64,000 nucleotides of DNA from Amphiscolops sp. MND2022 (taxonomy: Eukaryota), in NCBI GenBank assembly GCA_964187785.1, contig OZ076416.1:21080001-21144000 (forward strand), read 5' to 3'. Every line of letters starts with the position of its first letter. The stretch's first letter is position 1. A program made the position numbers and the translations under genes. Positions 1,861 through 46,834 of the stretch are shown one piece after another. Below the pieces are notes generated by a model, which was given only the letters and a program-made list of their open reading frames with translations, was not told the origin of the DNA and did no database searches.

Positions 1861-1892
1861 CCCGGCGGTTAGCAAACTGATGGTGTGGCGGG

Positions 1893-4047: not shown

Positions 4048-5088
4048 CTAGTTACTCCCCAGTATGTCTCTAACCTGTTGGCAAGTGAGACACTGGCTGA
4101 CGTATTCGCCCACTGTGCGGCGTATCCCAGGCCAGGTATGGCGTTCTTGTATTCGCGCCACAACCATGCTAATGCCTTGGTGTCCCATGGCATCATGCGC
4201 ACGAAAAAGGATCTCGTGTTGGTACAACTGAGGCATTACAATCATACAGGGTCGCTCGTGCAGCGGACGCTGTGAAGGCGGGTATTTCACACAGAGAACA
4301 CCATTTGAGTTCAAGAACAGTACCTCCTTCTTTTGTTTGAAGTAGTTGCGGGCAAATGTACGAACATCTTCAGGAAAGATGTCTTGACTTATGCCTTCTC
4401 CATGGACAAGCCTTTTGATCGCTAGGACATGAACGTCCCGGTTTTGGGCTAACACCAGGTCCTTGATAAAATGGACAGTGTGGGTATGTTCGTGGAGCTC
4501 AGTATTCACGCTGCGAAAAGCCATTACTGCCTGCTTGATGTGGTTAGGCGCATTTTGTAGTGCCGCGCCTTCGGTGTTAGCCACGTCATAGGTGGTACGT
4601 GAGGCAATGTTGGTTGCGTGCGTAGGCAGTAAGTAATCATGTCGGGCTTCTTCAGTGACATCTATCCAATCCTCTGGGTAATCGGGATAGAAGTCTTCGT
4701 GGGCCTGTAGGATGGGAGGTGGCGGTGAGGGTAGTGGACTGTGTAAGACTTCGTTCCGTTTAGCTTGTCTCTTTGCTCGTTTTGAGCGACGAATCACGCG
4801 TTGAACCAGATCAGGGGGGTTTGGTTGTAGATTTTTCAAGTGTATCGGTAACTCAGGATGATTGGGAATTACCCGTCCTTGCTGATCAAACAAAAGTGCG
4901 GTGGGGAGCCGTTCGTATTCGTCTTGGGATAGGAAATTCCAACGTTCTGCATCTGGTGGTAGTTTTTCAAGCTGTCGTTCTCTCCATCGGCAATCATTGG
5001 TGCGTTTGGACAAACCATCGGCATTGCGATGTTGCGTTCGTGGTCGGTGTTCCACACGGAAATGGTATTTTTCCGATCCATCTACCAA
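4048..5088 (-). pseudogene. pol: RNase H end, long linker and integrase HHCC zinc finger (truncated)
   Basis: HRNADGLS, then HDAMGHQG...WPGIRRTVGEYVSQCLTCQQ; no DDE core follows. Confidence 0.85.
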
Positions 5089-6175
5089 TGAGAGCTTGAT
5101 CCGTGGAATACGTTTTTAGCCATGAAAGTGCTTGATTATCCACTCTCAACGTGAACTTTCGTGGACACAAGTAACTATTGTTTTTGACAATGAAGTGATA
5201 TGCCGCGTACATTTCTAGCTTCGATGCTCCGTATTTGGCTTGGGTGGCAGTAAGCTTCTTGCTGCGATACACAATGGGACGTAGGCGCCTTTCTCCTGGT
5301 GGGCCTTGCCACTGATGGAGAATACCTGAAATTGCGACAGCGCTGGCATCAGTATCCAGCACAATTTCTCCTTCGGAATCCGGTTGCGCACGAGCAGTGG
5401 CATCAATGAGTGCATCAAGGGTTCAGATCCCCAGGCAAAAGTGGCTTTAATGCCGGTGATCGCATGCAAGGGAGCCACCATTTTGGCGTGCCAAGGAATA
5501 AATTCGCGGTAATAATTGGCAAAGCCTAGGAAGCTTTGCATCTCCGTTTTGTTACGCGGATTTTCCCAGTCACGTAGTTTTGAGACAGCCTTGGGATCGG
5601 GTTTTATTCCTTCTGCTGACACTACGCGACCAAGGTACTTGATCTCGGACTTCATGAAGTCGCATTTAGCAACTCTCATTTTGAAGCCAGCTTCTCGCAA
5701 GCATTCAAAAACTTCACGAAGACGTACCATGTGATCCTCCACTGTTTTCGTGGCGATAACAATGTCATCGATGTAGGCCATCACCATGTTACCTTCACGA
5801 TTCACGATCTTGCGTAGCGCCCGGGCTATTGCTCTTTGGAAGTTGGCAGAGGCATTGCACATCCCAAAGGGCATGCGTCGCCATTCAAACAATCCTAGCT
5901 CGCAGGCGAAGGCAGTTTTTTGACGGTTTGCTTTCTTTTCGGACAGGGATTTGCCAGAAAGCCCAAGCTAGATCTATACTGGTGTAGATTTTAGCTTTGC
6001 CCAGCCTGGCGAGGCTTTCATCTATCCGAGGCAATGGATACGCATCTTTGACGGTAACTTCATTCAAAGGGTGGAAATCACAACAAAAGCGTAACTCGCC
6101 ATTCTTTTTCTTGACCTTGACTATCCCGGTCGCCCAAGGTGACAGGGAGGGCTGAATCATGCCCAATGCAAGCAA
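4994..6175 (-). pseudogene. pol: reverse transcriptase and RNase H, split by frameshifts
   Basis: PLPRIDESL, IDLAWAFWQIP, MPFGMCNA, YIDD, FLGFANYYR, DTDASAVAISGIL, ELEM-like SKLEMYA, DNQAL. Confidence 0.93.
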
Positions 6176-8736: not shown

Positions 8737-10399
8737 GAGGATCCAACCATCAATGGAACCTTCCTTGGATCCTCTATAGACGCTGGCTTAGCTTGCGTTT
8801 GGTCACGTCCAGCCAGCAGAGGGGCCAGTTCCTTGGACATTGCCTTTGAAATGGCGGCTGTGAATCGCAGCTGTTCTGGGGATATCACTTCCTCTCCCTC
8901 ACTAGGGGCTGGAGAAATGTCTTGACTGCCTCTAGTGGCTTGCACAGATAGTTCACCATTCGTGTTATCTTTCTGGCGAGTACTGCTGGCGCAAGGCTTG
9001 CCTGTGAGCATTCCTTCGCTCGCGGTCAAGAACAGTGATTTGGTCCCAGCAGTTTTTATCCTGACGGTTGCGTAGGCTTCATCCTCTGTGCTGCTAGTGC
9101 GTGAGCCAGCAGTTGCTCTGGTGTCAGTCAAGTCAAAGGTCGACGATGTGATCGGCATTGGGTCTACTCCCTGATCCCTGGTTCGGGTCAGCGACGTCAT
9201 CGGTGGCGTTGGTGCATCATCACTGAGTACGTTGGGCGTGCACACGTGCACTTTTGTGGCTTTCTTGTTTATCGGTGGTGGTATGACTACTTTGGGCTGC
9301 GTTTTAGGGCTTGTTTTCAGTGTTATTGACGGGTTGGGGGTGCGCATAGGCAACATCTTAATCGTGGACTCAATAGGTTCGGCAACTTCAGTTTGCTTTA
9401 CCTCTGGAGTTCTTGTGTGAGATACAGCTCCACTTTGAGTACGAATCTGGTCACTGAGTTCAGCAAATTGTGCTTCCACGCCGAGTTCGCGCTGGAGGAA
9501 TAAGTCCTTCATCTCCTCCAGACGATAGCCCATAGCGTCCACTTTCGCAGCTTACACTGTGGTCTGCTGGGTCGAGCTCCTCAAGCTACCTTTTACGGAG
9601 TCCTGCAGGGCTTCCAATTCTGCAGTCATGACCTCGTGCTGTTCATTGCATTCGGCACGAGTGTCGGCCAGACGTGCTAGGGCTCGTTGGGCTTCAACTT
9701 CCACTTGCAACATTGCAGTCCGTGCGGCAGCGGCTTCCTCGACAGCCCGATAGGCCGAGGACCTTCGAGATGAAGTAGTGGACACGGTACCGTCACGAGC
9801 TAGTTCATCTTGCACACACACTGTTGGAGGGCGCGTTCTTTGCTTGCCGGAGGTTTTCGCTCGACAAGCCTCCAGACGATACTTTGCATAGTTCATCCCA
9901 CCGACATAAGTCATGCCTTCCAAGATTGCATCAGTATCTTTACTAGCTGGGCTGTCGTTGTTCTTGGGTGTTCCTGAGCACCCAGCGCGCACAGGGGAGG
10001 GGTCACCTCCACTGCCGTTTGGTTGGAGTTGGACCACAATCCAGCCGTCTGAGGCGATGTCAACTCGCCTCTCTTGTCTTGGATCCAGTGTCCTGTGCGG
10101 ATTAGTTCTTCCGATAGGGGTGAGTTTAGGGCCATAGCATTCTGATCTTCCCGCCGTTGCTGATCAACAGTAACACAGTCACTCATTGCTTCTGGAAAAG
10201 AGGAACCAGTCGATAATGACTTTGTTGGTGGCCATTCTCTCAGACTCACCTGACTTATAGTATCTGAGCTTTCACGTTGGGTCGAGCTTATCTCTTGCAG
10301 TTCGCTCGAATCGGTAGCGTCAGACGCATTGGGTTCGCTACCTTCCTCCGTGGTATGCGTGAACAGCCGGACTACGGTTGCTCCACCCACCCAAAACAT
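8733..10399 (-). pseudogene. N-terminal gag-side ORF segments of the same Gypsy element
   Basis: Three adjacent co-oriented ORFs (8733-9542, 9552-10037, 9911-10399), Ser/Thr/Pro-rich and coiled-coil-like, separated by single stops or frameshifts. Confidence 0.6.
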
Positions 10400-10584
10400 G
10401 ATGCTTCACATGTTGATCTAAGATACGTCACAAGTCGATTCACCAGTATCCCCAGCTTCGAGTCACTGGGCCGTACTGCCGTTCGCCCGTACCTACCCCT
10501 CGAAGCGTTGCCGGTGTGACAAGCGTCCAACCTGACTATGAGCTGTCCTGAGGTCACCCAATCCGTTCCCAGAGGCCACTAAAG

Positions 10585-14240: not shown

Positions 14241-14277
14241 CACGTCAACTTTACGACGCATATCCCTACACTTTTTG
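14241..14277 (+). repeat. left terminal inverted repeat
   Basis: CACGTCAACT then TTACGACGCATATCCCTACACTTTTTG (14251-14277). Confidence 0.75.
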
Positions 14278-14319
14278 AAAACTGCGGAATTGACGGCTAA
14301 CCGCAGGTAGCACCTACCA

Positions 14320-14700
14320 GACCTGGAATCCGCTGTTTAAAATGACGGATTTCAAAGACACACTTTATAACATGTGCAGCGGATTCCGCTTGCGATTTTT
14401 TCTGGATTCCGGGGACAAATCTCTTTACATTGAATTTTTGGTGGAATTCAGAGGCATATATTATTATATTAGACAACAGTGGATTCCGCAGTCGCTGTAC
14501 CGGAATCCGGGGTCACATAATAATACACAGCATAAAAACAGCGGATTCCAAGGACAAGCTTTCGTAATGTAGAGAAAAAAACAGTGGAATCCACTGCTGC
14601 GACAGCGGATTCCGCAACAGCACCAGTGGATTCCGCTGTTGTGCAAGCGAATTCCGCAGTTTTTGACAGCTGCTGTTTTTAACAGTGGATTCCACTGCAA
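14320..14700. repeat. left subterminal array of CAGCGGA(A/T)TCCGCTG-type palindromes
   Basis: About ten degenerate copies, e.g. CAGCGGATTCCGCT at 14377-14390. Confidence 0.85.
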
Positions 14701-15627
14701 GATATCGCGAAATATGTACCACACCTTGTTTATTCAGCACTTACAATATTTATGTTTTAGGACCATTTGTATTCCTTCTGGTTCATCGCCCATCAGCACA
14801 CATCAAGGACACTTCAATGAATGACACACATAATTTGGATTTGGCCTATTTAAATGTTTTAATTAATTAATTATTTCAAACTTAAAAATTTTTAGTTCAA
14901 TCAAATTTAGTCAATTTGTTCAATCTGCATATCAAACCTGGTTCAGCATATGTCAATTAATCTAGTGATTTGAAGAACTTGTAAATTAATATTTAATAAT
15001 ATTAATTATAGTATTGATTTGTAAAAATGTTATCATCACTTCATAATTTGTGCTAAATTTTTGTAACAATTAGATTGCGTGTTGTAATTAAGTTTTTATA
15101 TGCTTATTTTATCAATGAAGAAAAGCGCCAATTTTAGTCAAAATTCAGTTGTCAAAATTGCATTTTGTCCGAACTTTGTAAAACAAGTTACCACTCTTCT
15201 CTGTGTTTAAGAGAATGCACTGCTTGTATTGATTTGTAAGAACGTCATCAATATTAACTTCAGAAGTCAACTTAGGTCAGAAGTTTTGATAGCTCAAGAC
15301 TTTTTTTACCAGTTTAACGAATAAAACAAACCTTGTCTGAAAATAACATTGTTCAAAATAAGGACTGTGGAAATACTTTACACTATATCTAAAATTGATT
15401 GTCGTAAATTAAGTAAAGGTTTTAAAAAAAATGTTTAAAAAAGGAACTATTCCTTGTTATTAATTATTAATTCTTATTATAAATGATCTATTAATTAAAT
15501 TTATCAGTCAGCTAATTCGTTTTGATAATCATGAGTGATAATTGTATTTGAAGATTTTAGAGTTTCAGAGAGAATTAATCATAGTCATCAATATTGACTT
15601 CATAATTTGTGCTAAATTAATGTGTCG

Positions 15628-15641
15628 GTAACTATAGCAAC
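15628..15641. promoter_or_regulatory. RFX X-box-like motif in a promoter-like patch
   Basis: GTAACTATAGCAAC, with TCACGTGA at ~15712 nearby. Confidence 0.35.
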
Positions 15642-18250
15642 GCGCCGACCGTCATAAATGGGCTGGCGCCAATCTCACTCTTCTCTGTGTTTGAGAGAAC
15701 GAGGCATTGGTCACGTGACTGAAATTGTTCGATTACAGAGTAAAATAAACAAACCGTTTTGTCAGTGTGTGATTAGTTACTGCCAATACAAGTTGTTGAC
15801 CAGCCTGCTCCTTTCTTGAAATCTTAGTTGAAACCTGCTCCTATTGAATACCTTTCTTGAAATCTTGATTGAAATTCATAATCCCAATCCGATTTGTCTT
15901 AGTTTTAAATTAGATGAAGAATTCTCGAAGTCTTCTTACTAATCTTCTTCCTATTCAGTCTTCTTTTGATTCTAAATCAAGGTAAGTAACATTTATAATC
16001 CTCAACCTAATTGTCAAGATTATTTGAGAGAATCTCTGTATAAGATAAAAAAATATACTATATATGTATATATAAATATTTATACAATATATTATATTTA
16101 GTAAATATAAATAAAATATAATATATAAATATATAACGAGACCGGGCTCATTTAAGGGAGTCTCTGTATTTAGGATAATTATTTGTCTCTGTATTTATCT
16201 CAAAAAAGAAATTAAAACGAGTAGGTTTTAGCTGAACGGACACTTGACTAGGTTACTGAAAGATCCAAAATAGAATGTATAAAATGGCAGTTCTACAAGC
16301 AAAAAGTTATTCGGTAAAAAGTTCTTGGGCTGTCTTATCGCCGTAATCGAAACGTAGTTGCTCGAAGGGTTCTATCTGTCGTCTGGCCTTCATTACTGCG
16401 ACTCTCAGAGGGGGATCTGTATGGTCCAAGAGGATGCTAGCAGACTTCATGTTGGCTTCTCTGTTATCAGCGTTGTTTCTTCTCTGGGTCGCGTGGTTGG
16501 CTAAACGACCCATACCTAAACGTCATAAATAAATTGTAGAGATTGTTATTCTTACAACTCTAAGGATAAAACATCATTATTATTATTACATAAATTCGTT
16601 GGATGATCCACACAAATCTCGGAACTGGCATCTATAAGTCGCTTTGGTGGACCTGCTACTTCCATGACAAACTCGCTCGTAACGTCGGGTTGCTGCACGT
16701 ACTCCTCGAATTTCTGGCCGGTAATGACTTTCCCGTGGTAGTCTACAATTATTGTGTCTTTCTCCAGTTTTCCTAGACTGACAATGCCTCGACCAAATTT
16801 AGTGAAATGGGCATCGCAAATCCACTCCCACTTTTGGTTGTCAATTCGGTCTTTCAAATTTATCTGGTTTTCGTATGACAACCTGTCTCCTTTGCAGATG
16901 ATGAGATTGAACTGCGGCCTGCATATACTGGTCCGTGATGATGTGCTCTTCATCTATTCAAAACACAAAGCATCCAAACTCAATGATTTTTTCTAATAAC
17001 TATCGATCACTTAGCATGGGGCAGCTCCAGACAGGCCAAACACTCTTTTAGCTGCTTACCCTATGGTACCAAAACAAACTATTTTTTTGCCGCATTTGAT
17101 TTTCGATTTGTGCCATTGGGAAATTTTATCGTAATCTAATGCACTGCAATCTAAAGTACTCGAACGTGACGTAACCCAACCTAACCTGTTTTATAGCTAT
17201 AGTCATCGTTTTCTTGATGTCACATTTGTCCCAGCCCATCCTCGCATAAAAGGTGTTCAGGCGCTGCTCCAAATCACTGCAATTTGACAGTAACCATCCA
17301 TTGTTCTTGATCCAATGTTGCGCTCTAATTGTTTGCCGATGGTACCGTAATTGGTCAAGTCTGTGCTTCACCGCCTTGGAAACCTCTTTGTGGGTATAAT
17401 TTTCTGTCTGACTTTTCACCTAAAAAAGAATTTCCATTCCTTGGTTGAAAGCATAAGTTTAGAAAGGAAAGTCAATATTTTATTACCAAACGAAAAAGAA
17501 CAAAACCTGATTGATTACTTGCTTCTGTTTGCCAATGGTGAAACCTGGATCGCTTCGAAACGGCAGAAAACTCGCAACATGTCTCTCTAGGGTGGTCTCT
17601 TGAGGGTTATCGATGTGCTGCTGAAGCTAAAAGACGCAAACTTCGGTAAAAAGATTGAGAACATGCAGGATTTACTGCGAAAAAATTCGTGACGTAGATT
17701 CAATAAATCAAATCGGTCTCGCAATTAAAATTTCCATGAATTTGAAATAATTGTAAAACGAGTGGTGACCCTGGAAACATTTGAAGCAATTTAGGTGTTT
17801 CTGGGTTGAAATTTAAGTTTTTACCGTGTCTTTGAATTGGTCGCATAGTTGGCGCACTTTGAAATGTGTTGAGCCATTGGAATTGACGAAAAAGCGGTGA
17901 GTTCTCACTGTTCTTTTGTCATCTGCGAAAACCCTGTTGAAATTATCAAGACCTTCTTTTGGCAGGAATGCGGTCTTGCCTCCAGGTAGTATGTTTTCAA
18001 ACCGTCCACTAGCCATCGGGGAACAGTGTGCGACGATCTTATCGGAGAAAATTCAGCAGGCTCAACATAGATTGTGATTCATGCATCAACTGCTGTTTCA
18101 TTGTCTGTGTTCTCTTGCAAGGAAACGATGGCCTGTGTAACAGCATGCACTGTCAGCTCTATGATACCTTTGTCCATCATTGGTGGTGCTGCATGCTTTG
18201 ACAGGAAACACGCCAAAGCACGAAAGAGCATTGTTCTTTCCTTTTGTGTC

Positions 18251-18350
18251 AGAGCTTCCGTTTTCTTGTACTGCTCTACAATGTCCTTGATGGCTATCTC
18301 AGAGCTTCCGTTTTCTTGTACTGCTCTACAATGTCCTTGATGGCTATCTC
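18251..18350. repeat. exact 50-bp tandem duplication in a SET-gene exon
   Basis: 18251-18300 equals 18301-18350; shifts the reading frame. Confidence 0.97.
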
Positions 18351-18699
18351 AAGTTCTTCTTCAGTCGTCTCGCCACAAGTAGCCCTGACAGAAGTCTTCG
18401 ATATTTTCTAGATATTTTGAATACAAATTTCAAAAACAACTTCAAATGTTAGAATGAAAGTCAAATAATACTCAACAAGTTCAATTACAAATTCAAATGA
18501 AAATTCTTTTCCAAATTCAAACACAAAATGAATTTTAAAATTTAGGAAACACGAAGTTGTTTCTCAAAATTTTCGCTTATTTTATACGATCGTGCAAACA
18601 CTGTGAGGTGTGTGACACGTTCCGTCTTTTCTTGAAAGTGAAAGCTGAAAAAAAAAATAAAAATCCGTCACCGCTCAGCCAAGGCGGTAGCTGGAAATT

Positions 18700-18860
18700 T
18701 TCCTGGAGTATGGTACAGGAAACTGAAATCATAATGTATTAGGATTTGTCTGCGGATTCCGCTGTACATGTGTTAACCTTTGCCCCTAAATTCCGCAATG
18801 CTCTTTTGGAAGTCAATGATATGAAACATAAGACAGCGGATTCCGCTGCTATGATGAATA
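18700..18860 (+). repeat. diverged partial copy of the 218-bp unit in SET-gene intron 1
   Basis: GGTACAGGAAA...CTGCGGATTCCGCTGTACATG...CCTAAATTCCGCA matches the 24.6-25.1 kb unit. Confidence 0.8.
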
Positions 18861-19959
18861 AAACTTTTTTCGTGCTCTATGTGGTTCTAGAAGGTGATAA
18901 TCTCCCGCTTCAGTTTAAAATTTTCACTTGAAATTCAAAAACTGACCTCCGGAATATCATTTGTTGCAGAGCTAGCTGCTCTTTTACGACTTTCTTCAAG
19001 TTGCTCAGTCGACGAAGCTTCAAGCGGAGGAAGAAAAAGGTCCGGCGAATGTTCAGGTGGTGGAAGAAATTCACCAAACATGGTCGGAGGAAGTTCGTGC
19101 GAAATTCCATCTATGTTGAGCCATTGCGATTGATTCCAATCAAAATAAGACGGGTGTGAGTATTGGCGAACTACAGCCGGGCTCTTTCCGGTGGGGGTTG
19201 TCAAATATTCATGCGATCGTGAGAGAGGGGTTAATGTTGGAACTGGAGGATGAGGTAGCGTAAGTGAAAACGTCTCGGGTTGCACTGGCGTTGAAGTAAC
19301 TAGTTGAGGCGATTGAAGTTCTGTCAAATTTCCAAGATCTTCTAATGGTTGTGATTGAATTTGATGCGTTTGCAGAGACATTGTAGGTTCCTTCGAGGAA
19401 TAGAACGATGTACAATTCAAATTGACTGATTTCTAGTAGATCAAACTTATATAATGAATAGTATTATGATATTACTCTACTGAAACTGCTAATTACTTAA
19501 CTGATGATTGCCATCATAGTAATTTAACACTTCCACTTTCACAAATTAATAAAAGCCTCATCAGACGCAGCCAATGGAAATAATTGTAATTATATAATTA
19601 TAATGAGTATAATTTTATAATTATTTCTATTATAATTTTTGGCAGCGCCTGATGTGGTTCTTAATCATGTGGAAGTGTTAAAACCACACCTCATCTATCA
19701 TTTGACTTGAATCATCAGCACTTGTTCTCATTGTTCGTTCATTGGCCCGAAAGAATGCCCAAGTTTTCATCAGGACTTGAAAGATGAATGCGTAAAACAC
19801 ATGTATCTCGGATTGGACGGCTGAGACTTACGGCATGATAAAACCCTATCTAAAATAATAATATACAATCTATGTAACACACTCTAGAACAACATGGAGC
19901 ACCAAACGATTTTTTTCTTATAACAACAAACTGTTTTATACTCCATAATATTGCCTCCC

Positions 19960-20460
19960 AAAGAACCGCAGGGATACCTCGAGAAAATATCCAAATGAGC
20001 CTAGTAGCATAAAACAGTTGATTCCGTGGTTAGCGAGAGTGTTGCGCCTCATAACAGCGGAACCCGCTGTTTTGTATTCCAGATTGATGCCTTCCAAAAT
20101 CGCAGTGCGGAATTTAAGGACAAATGTTAATACATGTACAGCGGAATCCACAGGCAAATGTTAATACATTGCAATTTCAGTTTCCTGTACCATACCTCGA
20201 GAAAATATCCAAATGAGCCTAGTAGCATAAAACAGTGGATTCCGTGGTTAGCGAGAGTGTTGCGCCTCATAACAGCGGAACCCGCTGTTTTGTATTCCAG
20301 ATTGATGCCTTCCAAAATCGCAGTGCGGAATTTAGGGACCAATGTTAATACATGTACAGCGGAATCCGCAGGCAAATGTTAATACATTGCGATTTCAATT
20401 TCCTGTACCAGACCTTAAGAAAATATCCAAATCTGCTCAGTAGCATGAAACTGTGTATAG
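19960..20460 (-). repeat. tandem array of 218-bp units containing the palindrome
   Basis: CTCGAGAAAATATCCAAATGAGCC at ~19978 and ~20196; inverted relative to the 24.6-25.2 kb array. Confidence 0.92.
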
Positions 20461-21136
20461 GAATTTTAGTTTTTTTAAACCCTCTCTTGAAATTGCATTT
20501 TGGGACCAGTAATCTCAAATTTCCCAGGATGAAATCCTAATTAGCTAGAAGTCAAGTAGAATCTATAAGAATCTATCAGTGCATATATGTCTGTAATTGT
20601 CTTATAAGCGCCTATAAAAGTGCCTAAAATCGTCTACTGAAGCATTTGTGATCCGTTCCTCCAATGTGGCTAGGGAGTCGTCGCAGGGTACTTGGGAGCA
20701 GTCGCTCATTCCGAAACCCAGAGAAATGTCATTTAGAGTTTAAAACTTTCATATAACGAGAATACAGTATGCTAAGGCGCAGTTGGTGCAGTGAGGTCAA
20801 ATCGAATAAAGTAAATATCACGTAACGTTGCTTCAGTAACAGTTTCAGTAACGTTAGACATTTGTGATTGCAACATCTGCCGTACTAACTTGTGCATTGT
20901 GTCATGATTGCCTGTATGACTGATGCATATCTCTGAAAGTAGGAAAAGTAACAGCACGCGCGGCATGTAAGACTGATGCTTACCTCTGGATTTAGGAAAA
21001 GTATCTGTAATCTCTTAAAAACTAAGATCAAATGCTATTGAAGTAATTATTTTCCAACCTCTGCAATTATGACCTTGAATGTGAGAAATTGTATTAGGCC
21101 TAAAAATTTAACTGTTTGAAGGTTCTCTTCTGAAAT

Positions 21137-24100
21137 ATGCCCCAATTTCAATGCCCCACGTGCCAACTAACCCTCTCAAATAAGGGTAATCTGACCCGGC
21201 ACATCAACCAGAGTTGCGGTAAGAGAGAACAGACGCGCGGCACAAGAATGAAGTGCATGTTTTGTGGCTCTCCTACAGATGGCTCATTCTTCAAGGACGT
21301 GCAGCAGACTGCTGATCATGTGCTGACACTCCGATGCTGGAATGCTCGAAATGCCCTAACAGCGGAAGATCGAGCCAAATTACTGGAGCCCACACTGGAA
21401 AACTTTGTTCTCGTAAGAGACACCTACCCGGGCTGCAAGAAGGCCTTCTCGGCAGAAGGGAGGACGAGGAAGTTCTTCGATCAACCGCCACCGTCTAAGT
21501 TGGTTAAACGAGAAGTCCAAGTCCGAGAAGCCAGTGCGACATCGATTTCATCACCGTGGTGGGAGGTAATTCAATCAAACAAATAAATTTAATAAAAACG
21601 TAGCTTATGAGCATGAATAAGAATTAAGTCAACGGTTCTGTTTGATTTTGAATGAATGACATTTTTGAGTTCAAATGATTAATTTTTGAACAGGTTCCGG
21701 AAAGCAGCAGTCCTGTGGAGCCTGAGCATGCAGGTGTTGTTTCCTCCTCTTCCACCCTCCATTTTGCAACAGAGGCGGAAGAATATATTGCGGAAGAGTC
21801 TGTTGTTCTTCTTGAGGAGAAGCAAGAAGAAGAGGCAATCGCTTCCATGGTACTTTTGGAAGCCTTCAAGGTTGCAGAAGTCAACCACATTCAAGTTCAA
21901 GAGCCTAAATGTGTATGTATTTTTTTGAGTGACTGTTTCATGTTTCATGTAATATTTTTCAGGATGTGTAGTTTTTATGGAATTCTAGTTTTAAAAGCAT
22001 AATGGTTTGGAGGGATTTAAACTTCTAAAACCGATAATGCTTTAGGAAAAGTGGCAACAGAAACGACGACGTTTGCACAAGAATGTATCACGAATGCCAG
22101 TGACACTTCCAAACCTGAGCAGATGTACGCTTACCATGCGAAGGATGAACATGACGAACACGAACCTCATGAAATCGTTCGCTAGCATCTGGGAACTGCG
22201 TGACCTTATGAGTCAAGTAAGAACTTCCCTGGATTTGAGAATGAGATCTCTTCTCAGGATCTTAGAATGCAATTTCTTCTCCTCCAGACTCTAGATCTAA
22301 TCGGTTTTGAGTCTCTGGATTCAGGAATAAGATCTCTTCTTTAGACTTAAATCTCTGGTTTTAAGAATAAGATCTTTTCTCTAGATATAAATCTCTGGGT
22401 TGACGAGTAAGGTTTTGTCTTCTGTGTAATGTAAATTGGAGTAAATTTAGATTCCAAATGCTACCTCGATGCGGCGTGACATTACAGCAGAAGAAGTCAC
22501 ACCAGAACTGCTGTCAGACCCGGCTTTTTTGGACGGGGAGTATGTCTTCGTCATCTGTGACGGTTTGGCCATCCCCGGCTTCAACACGAAGCTAACCAGA
22601 GAGAAGATGAGCCGAATGTCGTCTGTTCAACAGATGATGCAGGGGTACAGTGGCAACCCCGTAACACTTCGTTATTTGACGACGAAGTTCGAGGTTAGCA
22701 GAGTCAATGTAACTGCTAAAAGAGATACAAACATCAATTTTGTTCTCTGTTATAAATTTGAGAATACATGTACCTGACCTGATATTTATTATTTAGGAAG
22801 GGAAGAAAGTTGTGCCAGGTAACAGAGTTACCGAGATGATGGAGAGTGACCCCCCCAAATTTTTCAACGTCATCGATGCCGAGGCAAACAAGTGCCCAGG
22901 AGCCTCATTCAAGAAGCCTAGCTTTCTAGACGAGGTTTCCCTTGGGCATATGAACTGGGAACAGACACCTGCAGCATTGCGTCCAGTGCGTGAATCGAAT
23001 TATTTGCTGATTTCACAAAGTGGCGCAATCACGGGGTTCCACCAGGATTTTTCATCCACAAGTGTGCTGTATTATCTGGCCAAAGGTTGGTACCAGGTTT
23101 TAGTACAAGTAAAATGAAAATCGTGTTTTTTTTTCAAAATAAGTCAAGTGTTTGGTGGCTGACGGACTATTGTTACAGGGGTTAAAGCTTTCCATGTTGT
23201 GAGGCCCACTGCCAGAAACGTTGACTTGTTCAAGGCGTTCAAGAATCTCCCCAGGCAAGTAAAATTGTTTATACTTACACTACACAGTGCTTTTCTCTCT
23301 GTTATGCATGTAAGACTGATAACCGGGAAAAATTTATTACTGTTATTGATTGTTTAGAAGGGACCTCTTTTTTGGCACCCATGAAGAGCTTGACATGGGC
23401 GGCTGCACAAAAGTCATTCACTTCGAGGGACAGGCGCTGATTCTTCCTGCGAAGATGATCCACGCTGTGGAGACTTTCGGCATGTCAGTTGCTCTGGGAG
23501 TCAACTTCATTCACCGCCTGCACGTGAAGAAAGCTGCCGAAGAGTTCTCTGAAGAGCGGTGCCGACATGACCCCTACGACGAATGTTATCCCCACCTTCC
23601 CCGACTTTTGTTCACGCACATTGCGAGTTTGATGAGGTACATTATTTATTTTATTAGTTATAATATCACTTTTCATGATACATGTAGTTTTGTATATAGT
23701 CTGTTTGAAATAATTATGAAACAATCATATTCCTAAACACAGAGGTTGCATAGTTGTACTATCACTTTTCATGATACGAGTAGTTTTGTATAAAGTCTGT
23801 TTGAAATATTTATGAAACAATCAGATTCCTAAACACAGAGGTTGCTGTATTTTAGTTCTTCTGCATCCGTGGACAAGCTTGAGAAGGCACAGCTGCTCAA
23901 CGCTGCTATGATTGTGCAGAAGACGAATTGTCACACTGTTGAAAATTCCATTGACACCGTTTGCCAGAAAGTATGTAATTTTCATGCAAACTTTCATATT
24001 ACTTTTTGACTTTGTCTAGCTAGAAGGTCTTTGCTTTTTGTTTTTGTTTTTTTTTTGTTTTTTGCTTGTCGGTGAAACAAAATATGTGTTTCTATTTATT

Positions 24101-24434
24101 ACGGAGGAATTTTGTTTCTAGTATGGAGTTACATCTGCATTAATTGTGCAGAAGACGAATTGTCAAACTGTCGAAATTTCCATTGACACCGTTTGCCAGA
24201 AAGTATGTAATTTTCTTGCAAACTTTCATAATACTTTTTGACTTTGCCTGACTAGAAGTTTTTTGTTTTTGTTTTTTGCCTTTTGCTTGTCGATGAAACA
24301 AAAAATGTGTTTTTCTATTCATTACGGAGGAATTTTGTTTCTAGTATGGAGTTACATTCGAACAGATGACAAGCTGGCTTTCCTGTGACATCGCAGTGCC
24401 TTCGGGGTCCTACGGGACTTCCCATCAAGGATGA
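21137..24434 (+). CDS. C2H2 zinc finger plus JmjC domain protein (KDM2/KDM7-like), 9 exons, ~629 aa, apparently intact
   Basis: Exons 21137-21565, 21694-21912, 22046-22216, 22451-22693, 22797-23085, 23179-23254, 23358-23636, 23856-23970, 24366-24434 join in frame (1890 nt). CPTC...HINQSC finger; YLLISQSGAITGFHQDFSSTSVLYYLAKGVKAF, LILPAKMIHAV, GVNFIH parallel the KDM2/7 core; HxD at 23040-23048, distal H at 23461. Confidence 0.9.
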
Positions 24435-24579
24435 TCCTGATGAGAACTATTTATTAACTTTTCAAATTTTTTAATTTTACTGATTTTTATTGAACATACA
24501 TTAGATAGAGAATTGATGATTTTAGTATAATTTTATGAATTTCTCAGCTATTAGGCTGCTAGATTTCAAACTGCTAGGT

Positions 24580-25190
24580 AGATTTGGATATTTTCCCAAG
24601 GTATGGTACAGGAAATTGAAGTCGCAATGTATTAGCATTCGTCTGCGGATTCCGCTGTACATGTATTAACATTGGTCCCTAAATTCCGCACTGCGATTTT
24701 GGAAGGCATCAATCTGGAATACAAAACAGCGGGTTCCGCTGTTATGAGGCGCAACACCCTCGCTAACCACGGAATCCACTGTTTTATGCTACTAGGCTCA
24801 TTTGGATATTTTCTCGAGGTATGGTACAGGAAACCGAAATCGCAATGTATTAACATTTGCCTGTGGATTCCGCTGTACATGTCTTATTATTGGTCCCTAA
24901 ATTCCGCACTGCGATTTTGGAAGGCATCAATCTGGAATACAAAACAGCGGGTTCCGCTGTTATGAGGCGCAACACTCTCGCTAACCACGGACTCCACTGT
25001 TTTATGCTACTAGGCCTATTTGGATATTTTCTTGAGGTATGGTACAGGAAACCGAAATCGCAATGTATTAACATTTGCCTGTGGATTCCGCTGTACATGT
25101 ATTAATATTGGTCCCTAAATTCCGCACTGCGATTTTGGAAGACAATAATTGTGAAGCGCAACACTCGCTAACAGCGGAATTCACTGTTTA
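24580..25190 (+). repeat. tandem array of 218-bp units, inverted partner of 19960-20460
   Basis: GGATTCCGCTGTACATG recurs at ~24647, ~24865 and ~25083. Confidence 0.92.
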
Positions 25191-25403
25191 ATGCTCCAAT
25201 TGTTTCCGACTAGCAAAAACCGACTTCTCCTATATCAAATACTCAGAAAGACTATGATTTTGCCCTCAACAACTTTTCAAGATGAACGACATAAGTTTGT
25301 ACGTGAACAACTCAATTGAACAGAACAAAAGAACAAAATATACAGAAATGTTGTGAAAACGAACATAAACACAACTAACAAAAAGAAACCTACGAAATTA
25401 GGT

Positions 25404-28400
25404 TCATGTTGATACTGTTTCCTCAGTATCTGCTGCTTTTTCCTCATCGATCTTTCTTTTGTTTCTGTGGCTCTTCAGGGCTGAGATAGCAGAAACTTTT
25501 TGACCTTGTTCACTGCACTGCCTCGCTAACAAAGGGCGCACATCTTTAACTTGCAATTTCTTGACATTTGGTCCGGGTAACATTTCGTACTTTTTCGGAT
25601 CCAGGATGCGATCTGATTCCAACGAGTCAAGTACAAACGAAAAGTGAATGAATTTCCAATCTCCTCCAGCAAATTTGCGACATAAAAGTCCTGTTGGAGT
25701 TGCCGCATTTTCCGATACAGACTTCTTTGGCACGTCCATCAACTCTTTATCGTTCGTTGATTCTTTGACAACATCCGTCGACTTCCTCAACTCTTTTTCG
25801 TCCTTCATAACGACAAAGCAGTTTGGACAAGTTGAGTGCGAAAATAACAATGTTTCAGCACTTGCTTTGGTGCAAACTGTTCCGCCCATCTCTGCTATCG
25901 CATTTTGGATATCTTCATTTTTCATTGAACCAAAGTTACCCACTACAAAAAAGTACAATCCCAAAAATCGGTGTTTCTTGTTCCGTGTCTCACCGACAGC
26001 AATCGAAGCGCACGAAACAGGCTGCAGGCAAATATCATTGTAAGTCTTCGATTCTTCGTCAGCTTGATTGACGATCCCACCAATTCCTCGGGCTTTCGAT
26101 AACAAATCGTTAATTGAAACTTGTTTTGCTTTGAGGGTTTGTTTCCTGAATAGCTTCAGCAAGGAAAATTGAAGCTCGAAAAAAAGGGGGTCTTGGGTTG
26201 ACTGCTTTCCTCCGCCTCTCATCGTCTTGCTCTGGAATGCTTTGTTTGCATTATGGTTAGACTTCTCCAAACCCTCGCACATATGATTCCAAGGAGTTAT
26301 AATATGTCCGCTTTCAATTAGTTGTGGATAAAGTAGCATCTTCAGCTTGTAAGGCGTAAGTCCTTTATCTTTGCCAAAAAGTAACATTGAGACTTGGTAA
26401 TACGTCTCTGCCCACTTGGTGAAACTTGTAATGTCAAGACCGGTCCGTGAACTGCGCAAAAGAATAGTGCACATGTTAAGGCTTTCCCTCATGAGCTCAG
26501 CTGCATCTGAAATAGAAATTCTTCTTCTTCTTTCCATACACCTTCGAATAAATTTGTCATGTCTGGAATCATATCAGAAAACTCGTCTTTGTTGGCAATT
26601 GCTGTAAGTGCTCCCGAACAAGAAAGTGACACCGCACCGACAGTCTTCACCTTCTGTCCAGATTTGGTAGTCGTATCGAACTGGAAGTGCGGTTTCTTCA
26701 CATCTCGTTTGGTCAGATTTTCTTCCAAACGCGCAAGTGACTCCTTCTCTTTGGGATGCTTGTCATCAACAAGCTTCTGTGCAATTTTTTTAAGGTCATT
26801 TTCGACACATCTTGTTATCATGTGCGTTACATCAGGGCAAACGCATCGTATGTCGTCGTAGCTTACGAGAGACGTCGCAGGTAGATCAGTGCGGAAAGGA
26901 ACTGGAACTTGGCTTCTGTATCCAGATTTTGGATTGACTGTTGTAGGCAGAAACGTGTCGTCCGATCCCAGAAACAGTGGCATGAGTGACGGGAAATCTG
27001 AGCTGCGATCGTTTGAGATTCCAAGAATTAACCTAAATGTAAGAAAAAATTTGACATCTTGTAGGCTCAGGAAGTTCTCAAATTACATTACAGCAAAAAA
27101 AATTACAAAGACATAACAGCAGGAGAATAAACAGAAAGAATCTCTCTTAAATCCAGAGTTTTTGAATCAGGCTGCAACCATGTATGATGCTCCCAGTAGT
27201 TTGTAGCAAAACATTTTGCAGCTACAGTGGCATGAAATAATTTGACAAAACTCTATAGGACTGTCCATCGTTCAGTTTTAAATTGAAGCGGTATCAAATG
27301 TTGCTCACCTGAGTAGGAACGGGTTGTCTCCGCTATAAGTCAATTTGACGCCGAGTTCTCTCAACGCAACAGTCTGCTTGAACAGCCACCCGGATGTTTG
27401 GTCCCCAACTTTTTCGTATCCCACATTTTGCTCTAAAGCAAACCTGCTGTCGTTGCCTCGGTACGCAGCAAAACAGAAGACACTGTCAGATGATTGCACA
27501 CTTATTTCCTCACAGATCAATCTGAACGCCAGTCTTGTTACTTCTGTTCCTCCAATTGCGGCACCATCTCCCCAGATATCAACTTTTAGTCCCGAGATGT
27601 TTGTAGTTTGAAGGATTGCGTATGCAGCAAGTTTGACACATCGAACAACATCCACTCGGAATCCACTGAAAGTTCTTTCCGGATTGCAGAGTTTAATGAA
27701 ATGTTGGGTGAATTTGGCATTGGACGTGACAATCGTACGAATTGAGGGTACCAAGTTAAAGCCCAGGCCAGGAGCTGACAATCGAGAACGAATCAGGTTG
27801 ATCACGTCATTTACGTTACCAGTCTTCGTATGAATTGCCAATGCGTCGCGAAAGTCAGAACAACTACCCCTGTCTATGAACAAGCCAGCACTAAGGCCCC
27901 CTATGATGTTCTTTTGCTTCTTGGACGCTCCATTACGCCTCTTCCTTTGTTCAGCTTCTCTGTGTGCTGCTTCAGTCAACCCACGAATACTAATCCCTTT
28001 GTACCTGATGCACCAAATCACTTGTCTCCAAAAGCTCTTCAAGTTCAACTTTTTCCCGGCTTTACACACATCCTGAGCATTTTTACGTAAAGAAAGTTTC
28101 GGCCTGCTCTTAATTCGGTTAGCTGGTTTGATGGATCCGCCAGATGAGCCAGAGGAAACGGGCATACACGAGTTGTTAGGGGCAGGAGCATTGAAGGGGA
28201 CGACGTTTGGGACAGATGCTTTGAATGGGACGTTGTTTGGTACAGACGCATTGATGGGGACGTTGTTTGGGAAAGATACATTGTAAGGGTCAACATCAGG
28301 AATAAGCTCTCGGGAAAAAAAGAAGGAGACAAAATCTTTCCTGACTTGGTTCCATGTGTGATCTCTCAATCCGCAAACTATGATAAGTTTCATTATTTTT

Positions 28401-28810
28401 GCAGCTACGTAGACTGCTTCACGTCCTCCTTTTTTGGCTTTGACTCTTCTGACCAAAGCTTCTGGATCTCGATCCAGCGAAGTACCAGTAACAATTTGTT
28501 TGACGGCTGTAAGCATATTACGATACCTGTTCTTGGAATTTATTTCCGCAAGAAATATCTTCTCTAGAATGTCGCTGTTGATAAACTGCCTATTGCATTC
28601 GACAATCAACAAGTGTTGATGACATAAGTCTTGTATGTAATTTGATCCTTCCATTGCAGGATGAAGATGAAAATCAAATGAGAATGGAGAGGTTAATATC
28701 ACCTTATATGTTCGCAAATCAACTCTAATACTGCGTTTAGTGTTATTTGACGCTTTTTCAATTAATTTGACGTTTTTTGAAATGATTTGACGCTTTCCAA
28801 AGGGTGTCAT
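25404..28810 (-). CDS. RAG1/Transib/Chapaev-like DDE transposase with C-terminal BRCT-like domain; one intron, one frameshift (~1043 aa if repaired)
   Basis: Intron 27033-27308 (AG|GTGAG...TTTAG, phase 2). D in IWGDG (27566-27568), D in YSGDNPFLLR-LILG (27326-27328), CPDVTHMITRCVE, TPY, E in EGLEKSNH (26265-26267). A single missing base near 26520 separates ORFs 26489-26983 and 25404-26537. Confidence 0.82.
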
Positions 28811-28955
28811 AATGCGTCTCTAACCGATAGACGGGTGTCAGTTTAGCACCTCGCTTTTACTAAAAGTTTTACTGGTAGTCAGTCGTTGTAATCATTATAC
28901 AGTTGTCGAGTTACTCTACCTGTTTACCTTCCTTACCTGAATAATATTTTCCAGT
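28811..28955. promoter_or_regulatory. 145-bp divergent intergenic region between transposase and Tudor-like gene
   Basis: Two ATGs face away from each other (28810 minus, 28956 plus). Confidence 0.5.
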
Positions 28956-30503
28956 ATGTCTACGCCCGCGGAAATTTTTCGTCCAAACGAAATGGTTCAT
29001 GTTATTGACGAGAGTATATCTAGGTGGACAAAGGCTAAAATTATTGGCATCGTTAGCGACTGGTCTGTTAAAATAAAATGGATAGGCTACACTTCAATCT
29101 ATCCTTCAGAAACTATTGAGGTACCCGAGGAAAAGCGTACAGATCAGTCGTCATGGAACCTTCGAAAAGTTATAGAAAAGACACATTCCTCCATACTTTC
29201 CAGAGAGGACAGACGACAAACACCAAAGGCAGTACAACTCGAGTACAACCCCAAACATTGTGTTCATGACGATGAGGTGAGTGTCAGTCCAAATAATTTT
29301 TGTTTTTCGAAAATCAGTGCGGTTTAGCGACTGCGGAATCCGCTGCTGTCTAATATAATAGGCTTTGCATCCGGAATCTACTGTAAACTTAATGTAAAGA
29401 GATTTGTCCCGGGATTCCGCTGCACTTATGAAGTGTGTCTTTGAAATCCGTCATATAAAACAGCGGATTCCAGGTCCTGTAGGTCCAAAATGCTGCGAGC
29501 AGTCAACTCCGTTCTTTTCAAAAAGTGTTGGGTTATGCATGGCATCGTAATGTGACATGTACATTGTTTGATTGTATTTCTCTGGGATTAGGAGAAGAGT
29601 ATTCGGATTACCTATTAAGACTTAGTCCATGTAAGATTGTACACCTCTGGAAATAGGAGAAGTGTTATTTATTAGGTCTAATTTTTTATTTCTGCGCTAA
29701 TTAGGATTCAGTCCATGTAAGATTTGTAAACTCTGCAATTAGGCATTTTTGAAAGGATCTCTGCATTTAGATTTAACCTTTTTTTCTAGGTAGACTTCTT
29801 AGACGAATCGGAAGACGTTGCCGTTGTGAAGCATGGACGAATACTACTTAATGATCTGTTCCTACAACAAATGATGGTTTCCGTAGAAGGCGAAATGCCC
29901 CGATACGTTTCGTACAGCGTACTACGGAACCCAGTCCAACAAGTTAGTGCCATCGTCCCGAAAGTAGAAGACGACGATGACGACGATGACGACTCGATGC
30001 CTCGTCCGCCGGCTCCAAAAAAGCCCCGCTCTCAGAAGGAGAAGCCCTTAGAGATTGACATGATCAATTTAATCCCCGTGCTTCCAGACGGGGACACCAG
30101 GACAAGCGTGCCATTGACTTGCGCTCCGTGCACAAACGGCATTCTTTTTAAAGGGACCAAGGCATTAGATCGAGGAGGATACATTTGCACAATTGAAATG
30201 CTAGAGTACGTCATTTCAAGGAAGAAAGCATTTGTCAGTTTATCATGGGATGAAAATGCGGACTTCACTAGCAGAATTCCAGCGTCTTCAGTAAGGCTCC
30301 CGGAAGAGAATTACACAACATTGGACCCCGTGAATCTAGACAGCATGGTTTGTCCTATTGATGGAACATATGCTGTATTTTCTGCCATCAAGCGGGCCAT
30401 AGGTCTGTATCGAAAAAAAACATTCTGCGAGTTTCAATGTGTGCCCCGCAACAACTTTCACCAGGCGATGTGTTGGATTCGAAGCAGATTCAGCTCGGGA
30501 TAA
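28956..30503 (+). CDS. Tudor/chromo-barrel-like repeat protein, 2 exons (~344 aa)
   Basis: Exon 28956-29276 (GAG|GTGAGT) joins 29790-30503 (TTCTAG|GTA) in phase 0. FRPNEMVHVIDESISRWTKAKIIGIVSDWSVKIKWIGY fits a Royal-family barrel pattern; acidic/basic linker DDDDDDDD...PKKPR. Confidence 0.6.
29325..29560 (-). repeat. inverted copy of the element's left end inside the Tudor-gene intron
   Basis: Reverse complement aligns with ~14245-14500 (CCTGGAATCCGCTGTTT..ATGACGGATTTCAAAGACACACTT...GGACAAATCTCTTTACATT...TATTATATTAGACA). Confidence 0.9.
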
Positions 30504-30756
30504 TGTACGTATTTCAAAATAAAATTGGTCAATTAGGAGGATCATTAAGTAATTGTTAACTAAGAGCACTGAAACAATCCAAGATGATCGTTTTTTGAGT
30601 TCTTGTTATTGTTTAGGTCAGATTTGCTGCTCATATTGAAACTGGACTCAAATTGAAAACAAAATTGGTCAATTAAGAAAATCATTAAGTATTTGTTAAC
30701 TAAGAGCAATGAAACAATACAAGATGATAGTTTTTTGAGTTCATGTTAATGTTTAG

Positions 30757-31023
30757 GTCAGGTTTGCTGCTCATATTGAAACTGGACTTCGCGGATGTCA
30801 TCGCTCGTGGGACTCACTCTTTGGAGAGCGGTGGGACATTTTGCCAGGAGACGGAGAAGAGTCGCTGGACACCCTCATCAGAGCAATCCGATTCTCTGAG
30901 ACCCAAGACTTTCTCTTCCGAACCATTAAGGTGCAGATAAACTCTTGTGAAGGTCGCTTCCGAAACGAAGAAAAATATCGGGAAATCCTCAATATCAACT
31001 CTAAACACAATGAGGGACTCTAA
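30757..31023 (+). other. probable further exon of the Tudor-like gene, or an orphan exon
   Basis: TTTAG acceptor, then open frame VRFAAHIETGLRGCHRSWDSLFGERW...NEGL*. The preceding exon ends in TAA just before a GTACGT donor-like site. Confidence 0.4.
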
Positions 31024-31089
31024 ATTTGTATTGTGTGTATTATTTATTGTATGCTAGCATCAAATAATAAATCAAGTTTAGAATCAAGA

Positions 31090-31830
31090 TCATCTATCCT
31101 AATCCCAGAGAAAATAGTAGAGTACATGTAGTTTTAGTAGCATGTAGGCCAATAATACATAATGGAGACAGTAATTTCAATCTCAGAGACAATAGTTGTA
31201 TACATGTATTATTAATAGCATGTAGGCGTATTATACATAATCCTAATCCCAGAGGCAATAGTAGCTTACATGTATTATTAATAGCATGTAGGCCTATTAT
31301 AAATACATAATGGAAACAGTACTCCTAATCCAACAGGCATTAATAGATTACATTCATGCCTATAATACATCAGGGAGACACAATTATCTTAAACACAGAA
31401 ACTGTATACACCCTGTAGAGGTTTCAGACAATGTATATTAATTAGTCGGCTTTTATTTTATAGTTGTATTGTCTCATTGATGCTCGTTTATTAATACCTG
31501 CCAATTTAGTGCAGATGAAGAATTGTTCACCGAAAAGAGAGTACAAAATAGTTAGAGTAAAGTTTGAATTCAACGAAATCGTTTCTTATCATAGAACTAG
31601 ATTACAACACAATCAATTAAACACAAAATACAGTAGTAGATTACGAGCAATACAGAATTATGATACTTTAATTTATCTCAGTAATCTTAATCCCAGAGAC
31701 TATAGTAGAATACATAATGGAGACAGTAATCCTAATCCCAGAGACAACAGTGGATTCCATACATGAAGGCCTATAATACATCAAGGAGGCTTGTTTATCC
31801 TAAACCCAGAAACTGTATACGCCCTATTAA
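31090..31830. repeat. degenerate minisatellite with CTAATCCCAGAG cores
   Basis: Repeated (C/T)TAATCCCAGAGA...TACATGTA...GCATGTAGGC segments; inverted relatives at ~29580-29710. Confidence 0.7.
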
Positions 31831-31879
31831 ACACAATAATAAGTGTATACAGCAAGCTTTATACTAGCCCGCACTCGTC

Positions 31880-32235
31880 TGCGGATTCCGCTGTCATACA
31901 ACTTGAAGCAGATGTCACGCAGAGCTGTCAGTGGATTCCGCTTCACAAAACAAACATTTTAATACTTGCTTGCATTAGTCTACGGAATCCGCTGTCACTG
32001 CCCCGGATTCCGCTGGTACTGGTCCGGATTCCGCTGTCACTCCCCCGGAATCCGCTGTAAGCAGCGGATTCCACGATTTCGAACTGACCAATGCAGCGGA
32101 TTCCGCGATTTTGCCATATCGTCAACTGAAATCGCGAGAAAATATACACTGCGGTATTAGTCCCTGAATTCCACGCGGCGAATTCCGCTCTTTGCGGTTG
32201 GCATGTTTTAAAGCTTGGCCCAGGATTCCACTGCT
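31880..32235. repeat. right subterminal array of the same palindrome
   Basis: About ten copies of (C)GGATTCCGCTG / GGAATCCGCTG immediately inside the right TIR. Confidence 0.85.
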
Positions 32236-32259
32236 CAAGCGGCTCAACTTTGAGCTGCA

Positions 32260-32297
32260 CAAAAAGTGTAGGGTTATGCGTCGTAATGAAGCTTGTG
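32260..32297 (-). repeat. right terminal inverted repeat
   Basis: Reverse complement reads CACAAGCTTCA then TTACGACGCATAACCCTACACTTTTTG; one mismatch to the left core. Confidence 0.75.
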
Positions 32298-41255: not shown

Positions 41256-41303
41256 TGATAGACCGGAACCTTTTTGGCTTGTCAGAAATCGTTTTTGAAA
41301 ACT

Positions 41304-46682: not shown

Positions 46683-46834
46683 TCCGCTTGATTTGTTCTT
46701 TGGTAAATATTCGTTTTGATCTTTTGATTTTGGATGACAGTTTTTCTAATTTTTGAATTCTTTGAAGTTTGAGCCATTTTTGTTATCATTTGTTTTCATG
46801 TAGTTTTAGAGGAGAGAAAAAACTAACGTAGCCA

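Follow-up and report, generated by a model that had tools for sequence, protein, structure and literature searches.

An 18-kb DNA transposon of Amphiscolops carrying a SETD8-like SET gene and a KDM2/7-like JmjC gene

Why do a SET-domain gene and a JmjC-domain gene, a potential writer and a potential eraser of lysine methylation, lie head to head in the genome of Amphiscolops sp. MND2022, and do they act on the same mark? The pair lies in a 64,000-nucleotide stretch of contig OZ076416.1 (GenBank assembly GCA_964187785.1, positions 21,080,001 to 21,144,000 of the forward strand), which is referred to below as the window and in which position 1 is the first letter. An initial annotation had likened the two genes to SETD8, an H4K20 monomethylase, and to KDM2/KDM7, of which KDM7 members such as PHF8 remove H4K20me1 and H3K9me1/2, and had suggested that they might form a co-regulated toggle. 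Here, we report that both genes are cargo of an 18,040-bp cut-and-paste DNA transposon (window 14249-32288) and belong to a mobile, selected kit with intact catalytic motifs. We give a probability of roughly 0.5 to the reading that we prefer, i.e., that this kit would keep its own family's copies active, with the JmjC enzyme stripping repressive mono- and dimethyl marks and the SET enzyme adding a higher methyl state, probably on H4K20. The notion of a co-regulated toggle on one monomethyl mark is weakened, while a shared mark in the dimethyl state, on H4K20 or another lysine, is a mere possibility.

A dispersed DNA transposon with a four-gene kit

The element, its ends, and its four genes are as follows.

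14249..32288: the entire 18,040-bp transposon, with AA duplicated at the target site (14247-14248 and 32289-32290)
14249..14277 (+): left terminal inverted repeat; the second base deviates from the family's CA start in the window copy
32260..32288 (-): right terminal inverted repeat
16307..19381 (-): SETD8-like gene, 6 exons; its sister copies encode 631 amino acids (aa), and the window copy has a frameshift in exon 2
21137..23970 and beyond (+): KDM2/7-like JmjC gene, 8 modelled exons, open over 607 codons
25404..28810 (-): transposase of the DDE type with the RAG1/Transib fold, interrupted by a single intron at 27033-27308
28956..31023 (+): fourth gene, three exons coding for about 400-420 aa, the placement of the second intron being tentative; a domain of 80 residues stands at the N-terminus

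When the 1.07-Gb assembly was searched, a 27-bp end motif gave 412 matches, compared with 0 for a control. Full-size copies of the window family number only about 40; several pairs of end matches lie merely 0.2-1.8 kb apart and represent non-autonomous derivatives. A 2-bp target duplication of varying sequence was present in 13 of 14 paired ends of this family, and every end flank examined started with CA, the window copy's left end excepted. All five elements of related families whose ends were located likewise combined a CATTAC start with a 2-bp duplication. These DNA-transposon ends rule out a provirus (no viral genes were seen), and the dispersed copies with ends and target duplications rule out a host gene pair.

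In the window, the SET and JmjC genes are divergent, with start codons 1,755 bp apart, and a divergent JmjC exon was found within 12 kb at 40 of the 42 close SET places of the family, besides which the genome contains many additional short derivatives. From the genome-wide SET and JmjC candidates, ten other regions were picked for mapping. Every one of the seven complete elements of other families with the same transposase type also carried the SET, JmjC, and fourth genes; in a degraded relative of the window family, the JmjC gene became apparent only on closer search; and three regions, plus half of one, belonged to another repeat class, which is described below. Five layouts were seen, counting that of the window family. 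Two place SET and JmjC in tandem, one puts them at opposite ends, one separates a divergent pair by other open reading frames (ORFs), and one has them directly divergent. Direct head-to-head order is therefore a property of the window family and is ruled out as a conserved feature. Thus, the linkage of the two genes in one element, as initially proposed, held up, but their order lost its value as evidence of co-regulation. What is conserved across families is a four-gene kit consisting of the transposase, SET, JmjC, and a gene whose N-terminus is, as a weak lead, Tudor-like.

Two variants of this arrangement were also seen. In the L075/L076 family (G000:C6:83.9-103.3 kb), two additional ORFs (289 and 382 aa) separate JmjC from SET; the longer ORF has no Pfam match and may be the 5' part of the SET gene. 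Sister copies L041-L044 are ~86% identical to the window in the JmjC region and 96% identical in the SET region, which suggests recombination between subfamilies or module exchange.

To quantify selection, we calculated the ratio of nonsynonymous to synonymous substitution rates (dN/dS) from fixed differences among three subfamilies (4, 3, and 2 copies), 2 of 11 copies being excluded as mosaic or deleted. Between subfamilies, whole-gene dN/dS was 0.28-0.35 for SET and 0.20-0.33 for JmjC (Fisher p from 0.013 to 3e-21), and it fell to 0.09-0.22 in the catalytic domains, the SET domain alone yielding small counts (1-4 amino-acid changes). The JmjC acidic region with exon 3 was unconstrained in one comparison (dN/dS 1.11). 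SET and JmjC are under purifying selection between subfamilies. Passive cargo, i.e., captured genes that hitchhike without function, would account for the many broken copies (of 11, SET is open in 7 and JmjC in 5), but we give it almost no credence: amino-acid changes are underrepresented among the differences fixed between subfamilies, so that dN/dS largely refutes it, and catalytic residues are kept across families down to 36% transposase identity.

The SET and JmjC enzymes

The following parts of the two genes bear on their identity.

19381-18947, 18407-17825, 17626-17507, 17419-17186, 16953-16590, 16515-16307 (-): SET gene exons; all introns GT-AG
16307..16953 (-): SET domain, encoded by two exons; Phe in place of SETD8 Tyr334, end 9 residues past the catalytic Tyr
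21137-21565, 21694-21912, 22046-22216, 22451-22693, 22797-23085, 23179-23254, 23358-23636, 23856-23970 (+): JmjC exons
21146..21208 (+): C2H2 zinc finger at the N-terminus of the JmjC protein; Pfam zf-C2H2 E 2.7e-4, below the curated cutoff

Six-frame translation located the SET motifs on the minus strand (GRG 16794, DYHG 16743, RLANH 16507, and RFDYGD 16354) and the JmjC motifs on the plus strand (H-Q-D at 23040/23046, third metal His at 23461), at the positions and strands first reported. The motifs do lie within the originally annotated extent of 16307..23636, but the JmjC gene runs past 23636, the SET gene is frameshifted, and both lie inside the transposon. A 50-bp duplication and a 1-bp deletion, neither of them seen in the 10 sister copies examined, bring the window SET to a stop at codon 183; seven of these sister copies have an open frame. 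Taken by themselves, the two SET exons of the window scored weakly in Pfam (E 0.08 and 0.025), and intronless paralogues from the same genome scored above the cutoff (E 5e-9 to 2e-12). The splice model is supported because its residues 172-631 align with an intronless paralogue (36% identity, E 3e-83).

Both enzymes were assigned to families by PDB ranking. With a SET-family profile, 14 SETD8 entries ranked on top (E 1.5e-12 to 5.6e-11), followed by a bacterial SET (7e-10) and then by KMT2A, the best other eukaryotic SET (1e-5), so the SETD8 resemblance was confirmed. The top row, 3f9w, is the SETD8 Y334F mutant, which ranks first because the family reads F-D-Y where SETD8 has Y-D-Y. Indeed, Phe occupies the Tyr334 switch in every SET examined (9 distinct C-terminal motifs and all aligned rows). 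Two tyrosines confine SET enzymes to monomethylation, while Phe allows higher states (PMC3874154); 3f9w is listed as a Y334F mutant, and one Y334F structure holds dimethyl-lysine (PMC3529403). The Phe at the switch predicts multiple methylation by the element's SET enzyme.

The family also departs from SETD8 elsewhere. In SETD8, a His and a Trp in the segment after the catalytic Tyr are functional, and i-SET residues that face the H4 tail have roles as well. The C-terminal segment is missing here, the window family ending 9 residues beyond the catalytic Tyr without the His or Trp. Given the Phe switch, the short C-terminus, and an altered i-SET region, the label "SETD8-related" stands, but that of an H4K20 monomethylase, as in the initial annotation, does not follow. 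The SETD8 arginine anchor is Arg188/Arg192 (PMC7893823); by eye, no such pair was seen at the expected spacing, and the profile alignment begins downstream of the anchor.

Compared with SETD8/KMT5A (PR-Set7), its nearest solved relative, the element's SET keeps GRG, YHG, RLxNH, and the catalytic Tyr-x-Asp, and it differs in the Phe at Tyr334, a C-x-x-H-P insertion, the short C-terminus, and a 460-residue N-terminal region for which the PDB profile found no match. The only named relative of the family, a hypothetical protein of Channa striata (P0177), has the C-x-x-H-P insertion and the Phe switch. A "tyrosine-recombinase-like" label for the middle region of SET, and for one gene of the second repeat class, was dropped, as Pfam, the PDB profile, and BLASTP against the fish SET gave it no support. 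One motif search of the genome for the host SETD8 returned 0 matches.

The JmjC model is open in 4 of 10 sister copies besides the window copy. Its least certain parts are exon 3 and the last exon, for which 24345-24434 is a candidate, and it requires a GC-AG intron (window 23255-23357) with a consensus-like donor. The window exons alone had no Pfam score, and an intronless paralogue passed the cutoff (E 2e-6). KDM7, PHF8, KDM2A, and PHF2 were the sole PDB matches of this paralogue at E <0.01, with KDM7 at 1e-16 to 4e-14 vs. 4e-12 for KDM2A. The window exons ranked the same enzymes first, weakly, exon 5 putting KDM2A (0.011) before KDM7A (0.018) and exon 7 putting PHF8 (0.002) before KDM2A (0.036). 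An N-terminal PHD finger is a feature of KDM7 (PMC13632499); Pfam found none in the window JmjC protein, where a C2H2 finger takes its place, nor did it detect CXXC, F-box, or JHD. Resemblance to KDM2/KDM7 was thus borne out, whereas a placement in KDM7 specifically was not. JmjC hydroxylases, which had been named as an example of unrelated families in which the domains might fall, were rejected, none being among the PDB matches listed for the paralogue, exon 5, and exon 7.

Every JmjC segment examined, that of the window gene included, retains the H-x-D motif and the 2-oxoglutarate Lys. A Tyr and a Phe keep PHF8 from trimethyl-lysine, limiting it to dimethyl (PMC13632499), and counted by eye, both are in register in the window protein. 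The element's JmjC is therefore like KDM7 (PHF8, KDM7A) and KDM2A in its core, its metal and 2-oxoglutarate ligands, and the aromatics that limit methyl state, and unlike them in having a C2H2 finger and no PHD, CXXC/F-box, or detected JHD. The single JHD match in the genome (G000:C4:53.01-53.03 Mb, L119-L121) points to the host's own canonical KDM7-like gene, which has a PHD-like exon, JmjC, and JHD.

The second repeat class carries KDM2/7-like JmjC genes too, and some of its families pair them with SUV4-20-like SETs (E 5e-12 against KMT5B; next family 1e-3). When places were compared by eye, 16 of the 19 best for this SET lay within 8 kb of a JmjC place. Neither ends nor a mobility gene were identified for this class, and the transposase of the window element was not detected in its mapped regions. 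Its loci include L080:7782-8357 (-) with L081:1164-1451 (-), L092/L093/L105, and L086-L089; in other families of the class, the SET is followed by a long low-complexity tail. Since both captured SET lineages are those of H4K20 enzymes, this class provides the best indirect support for the mark chosen in the initial annotation.

Such enzymes might also have substrates other than histones, so that SET and JmjC would methylate and demethylate host silencing factors or the element's own transposase or fourth protein and thereby control transposition post-translationally. The losses described above (PHD, the SETD8 C-terminal segment, and the i-SET residues), a variable Asp in the TDFH motif, and the fact that both genes always accompany the transposase would fit this idea. 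We nevertheless consider it improbable, since all of the closest relatives of solved structure act on histone lysines and comparable SET/JmjC pairs are found in a repeat class in which this transposase went undetected.

Transposase, fourth gene, and internal repeats

Further features inside the element are listed here.

25587..25967 (-): C-terminal BRCT domain of the transposase; it passes the Pfam cutoff as BRCT_2 (E 1.7e-7)
18671..18888 (+): one 218-bp repeat unit, lying within the first intron of the SET gene
19974..20450 (-): tandem array of the 218-bp unit, in the interval that separates the start codons of SET and JmjC
24564..25217 (+): a further tandem array of the 218-bp unit, flanked by the 3' ends of the JmjC and transposase genes
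14379..32106: near-palindrome GYGGAWTCCRC, 18 copies, none in the window's other 46 kb
29320..29558 (-): inverted, degenerate copy of the left end within intron 1 of the fourth gene; in three sister copies, the identity is 73-76%

Near 26518, the window transposase is ~107 bp shorter than 8 of 10 sister copies, a deletion that breaks its frame. By sequence, it had no PDB match below E 0.5 and no Pfam transposase family. Atlas features put a relative beside RAG1 (0.95), and a model of a paralogue from the same genome (predicted local distance difference test score 67) aligned with RAG1 over 366 residues (Z 12.6, root-mean-square deviation 5.4), followed by BbRAGL (Z 12.5), HzTransib (9.5), and the P element (8.9), with unrelated rows at 7.2 or less. 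Foldseek ranked the RAG1-fold relatives in the same order at E 0.008, short of 0.001. Transposases are 36-81% identical across families, and an exact motif occurs 186 times in the genome. Relatives are also present in other assemblies; metagenome contigs contained four related loci of 2-6 kb, the longest of which (L114) has transposase ORFs only, and in viral contigs no relative was confirmed (one candidate stretch, unconfirmed).

The CMCT clade (EnSpm/CACTA, Mirage, Chapaev, Transib, Plavaka, ESTA, Lanisha, and RAG1) is defined by 5'-CA..TG-3' termini and 2-5 bp target duplications, and C(2)C and H(3-4)H motifs are given as common to it (PMC12730594). The element resembles this clade in its CA..TG ends, a duplication within the 2-5 bp range, the RAG1/Transib fold, and DDE motifs. 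It differs in a transposase without C(2)C beside the second Asp and without H(3-4)H before the Glu, in the C-terminal BRCT domain, and in its CATTAC ends, 15-19 kb length, and three cargo genes. The two zinc motifs were absent at the canonical places in all 12 transposase relatives, in which only scattered, non-conserved matches occurred. As termini, duplication, and fold match while the zinc motifs are missing, we conclude that the element works like a CMCT transposon, and we do not file it under a named member. Transib and RAGL elements have 5-bp duplications and CAC ends; the window family, with a 2-bp duplication and CAT ends, shares neither feature, nor is ESTA's TA-only duplication found in its paired ends.

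The N-terminal 80 residues encoded by the fourth gene contain invariant F, D, W, A, W, R, and K and gave 161 matches among cluster representatives, some of them short stretches of repeat proteins. All 11 PDB rows retrieved with a 65-sequence profile of this domain were UHRF1 tandem Tudor (E 0.7-1.5); below the Pfam cutoff, TTD appeared in 2 of the 65 members and Agenet in 1, and an Atlas search with the fourth protein found no usable match. The UHRF1 tandem Tudor binds H3K9me3 via F152, Y188, and Y191 (PMC11707192), and by eye, two of these three cage positions look aromatic in the fourth-gene domain, F152 being the one that does not. As a weak lead, this N-terminus may be Tudor-like and a possible reader of methyl-lysine.

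All 18 window copies of GYGGAWTCCRC lie within the element and outside modelled exons, against a chance expectation of 0.06. Two other families carry enriched words of their own, and one further family has GYGGAWTCCRC too. VANC targets are family-specific tandem repeats (PMC5735166), which these arrays may recall; an equally good reading would make them transposase-binding sites.

The abundance of the genes raises the question of whether the kit acts in trans on host chromatin at large, e.g., by loosening germline silencing or favoring transmission. Hundreds of SET and JmjC candidates in many repeat families (first-look genome counts of 694, 992, and 465, the last being SUV4-20-like SETs) could supply a large dose, and Pfam recognized no DNA-binding domain in the SET protein. 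Each family, however, has its own full kit and its own internal motif, which would better fit a cis-specific benefit, and we regard a general effect in trans as highly improbable.

The rest of the window contains other mobile DNA, labelled in the first two cases by reading translations.

741-10405 (-): degenerate gag/pol ORFs of a long terminal repeat (LTR) retrotransposon
35263-36877 (+): reverse transcriptase ORFs of the long interspersed nuclear element type
39492-58166: LTR retrotransposon whose direct repeats are separated by ~17 kb; a tandem duplication of 3.94 kb lies inside it

Possible roles of the kit and relation to known systems

In our preferred reading, the kit would manage the chromatin of the element's own copies, which would thereby stay expressed and mobile. 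The JmjC enzyme would remove repressive mono- and dimethyl lysine, most likely H3K9me1/2 and possibly H4K20me1 or H3K36me2. Having lost the PHD finger, it would be aimed at the family's internal motif arrays by its zinc finger, or be guided by the Tudor-like protein. The SET enzyme would write a di- or trimethyl mark, most likely on H4K20, and in that case, it would not be a copy of the host monomethylase. The two would act jointly on different marks or states rather than as an on/off toggle of H4K20me1.

Several points weigh against this reading. The substrates are judged from family resemblance at about 30-40% identity; in the PDB profile alignment, the i-SET positions that face the H4 tail in SETD8 are not conserved; and the TDFH Asp of KDM7 is variable in the JmjC family (G, D, P, N, or T), so that the JmjC enzyme may have drifted in its histone specificity. 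The motif arrays could serve as binding sites of the transposase, and at E 0.7-1.5, the Tudor-like assignment falls short of significance, with no Pfam match above the cutoff to back it. Selection tells only that the genes mattered to the element lineage, and the kit was not confirmed outside this genome, where the four metagenome loci span 2-6 kb.

In a modified form of the initial proposal, which we hold to be rather unlikely, the writer and eraser would oppose each other on one lysine, probably H4K20, with me2 made and then removed in a timed cycle, e.g., around the excision break, where H4K20 methylation steers the choice of repair. SETD8 is the nearest SET and PHF8 demethylates H4K20me1 (PMC13632499), a dimethyl product would lie within the reach of a KDM7-type enzyme, the two genes occur together in 7 of 7 mapped elements, the second repeat class pairs similar JmjCs with SETs of another H4K20 lineage, and the transposase carries a BRCT domain. 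However, the order of the genes varies between families, KDM2A comes out on top for exon 5, and co-expressed opposed enzymes would cancel unless kept apart in time or place; furthermore, the excerpted account of PHF8 gives H4K20me1 only (PMC13632499), whereas the switch predicts a higher state.

A more far-reaching version would be a new RAG1-fold lineage of 15-19 kb elements that lost the zinc motifs and carries an H4K20-centred writer-eraser-reader set, aimed at its own copies via the motif arrays. Such a set would resist silencing and bias repair of the excision break toward copying from the sister chromatid, and a second, unrelated class would have reached the same solution with SUV4-20-like enzymes. 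Taken as a whole, we find this version doubtful.

Parts of the arrangement have precedents. HarbingerS and Phytophthora MuDR families encode SET genes (PMC12730594) and are thus, like the element, DNA transposons with a SET methyltransferase, but they belong to other superfamilies in an oomycete host, and the excerpted text mentions no demethylase partner. Endogenous giant viruses of Amoebidium carry KDM4-like JmjC genes proposed to counter host chromatin (PMC11244446); here too, mobile DNA has captured an intron-bearing histone demethylase whose reader domains were lost, but the carrier is a virus, the family is KDM4, and no paired SET is mentioned in the available excerpt. Element-encoded anti-silencing is found in fungal TET/JBP transposons (PMC12730594) and in Arabidopsis VANDAL/VANC (PMC5735166), where the VANC target repeats resemble the motif arrays of the element. 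Both systems, however, act on DNA methylation with a single cargo activity, as opposed to the writer and eraser pair here. No transposon with both SET and JmjC was found in a literature search, outside of which lay Repbase Reports, subscription journals, and supplements.

A caution for the annotation of this genome is that its hundreds of SET/JmjC "genes" are repeat cargo and not an expansion of host genes. The families also offer natural variants of the SETD8 switch and reader-less KDM2/7 enzymes, which would be simple to assay, as well as a branch of the RAG1 fold without zinc motifs. What has been known so far is anti-silencing directed against DNA methylation (VANC, TET/JBP) and single captured histone enzymes. 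The elements described here may edit their own chromatin and, if so, a writer and eraser pair selected across families would mean that transposons can fight on the histone layer with enzymes of their own.

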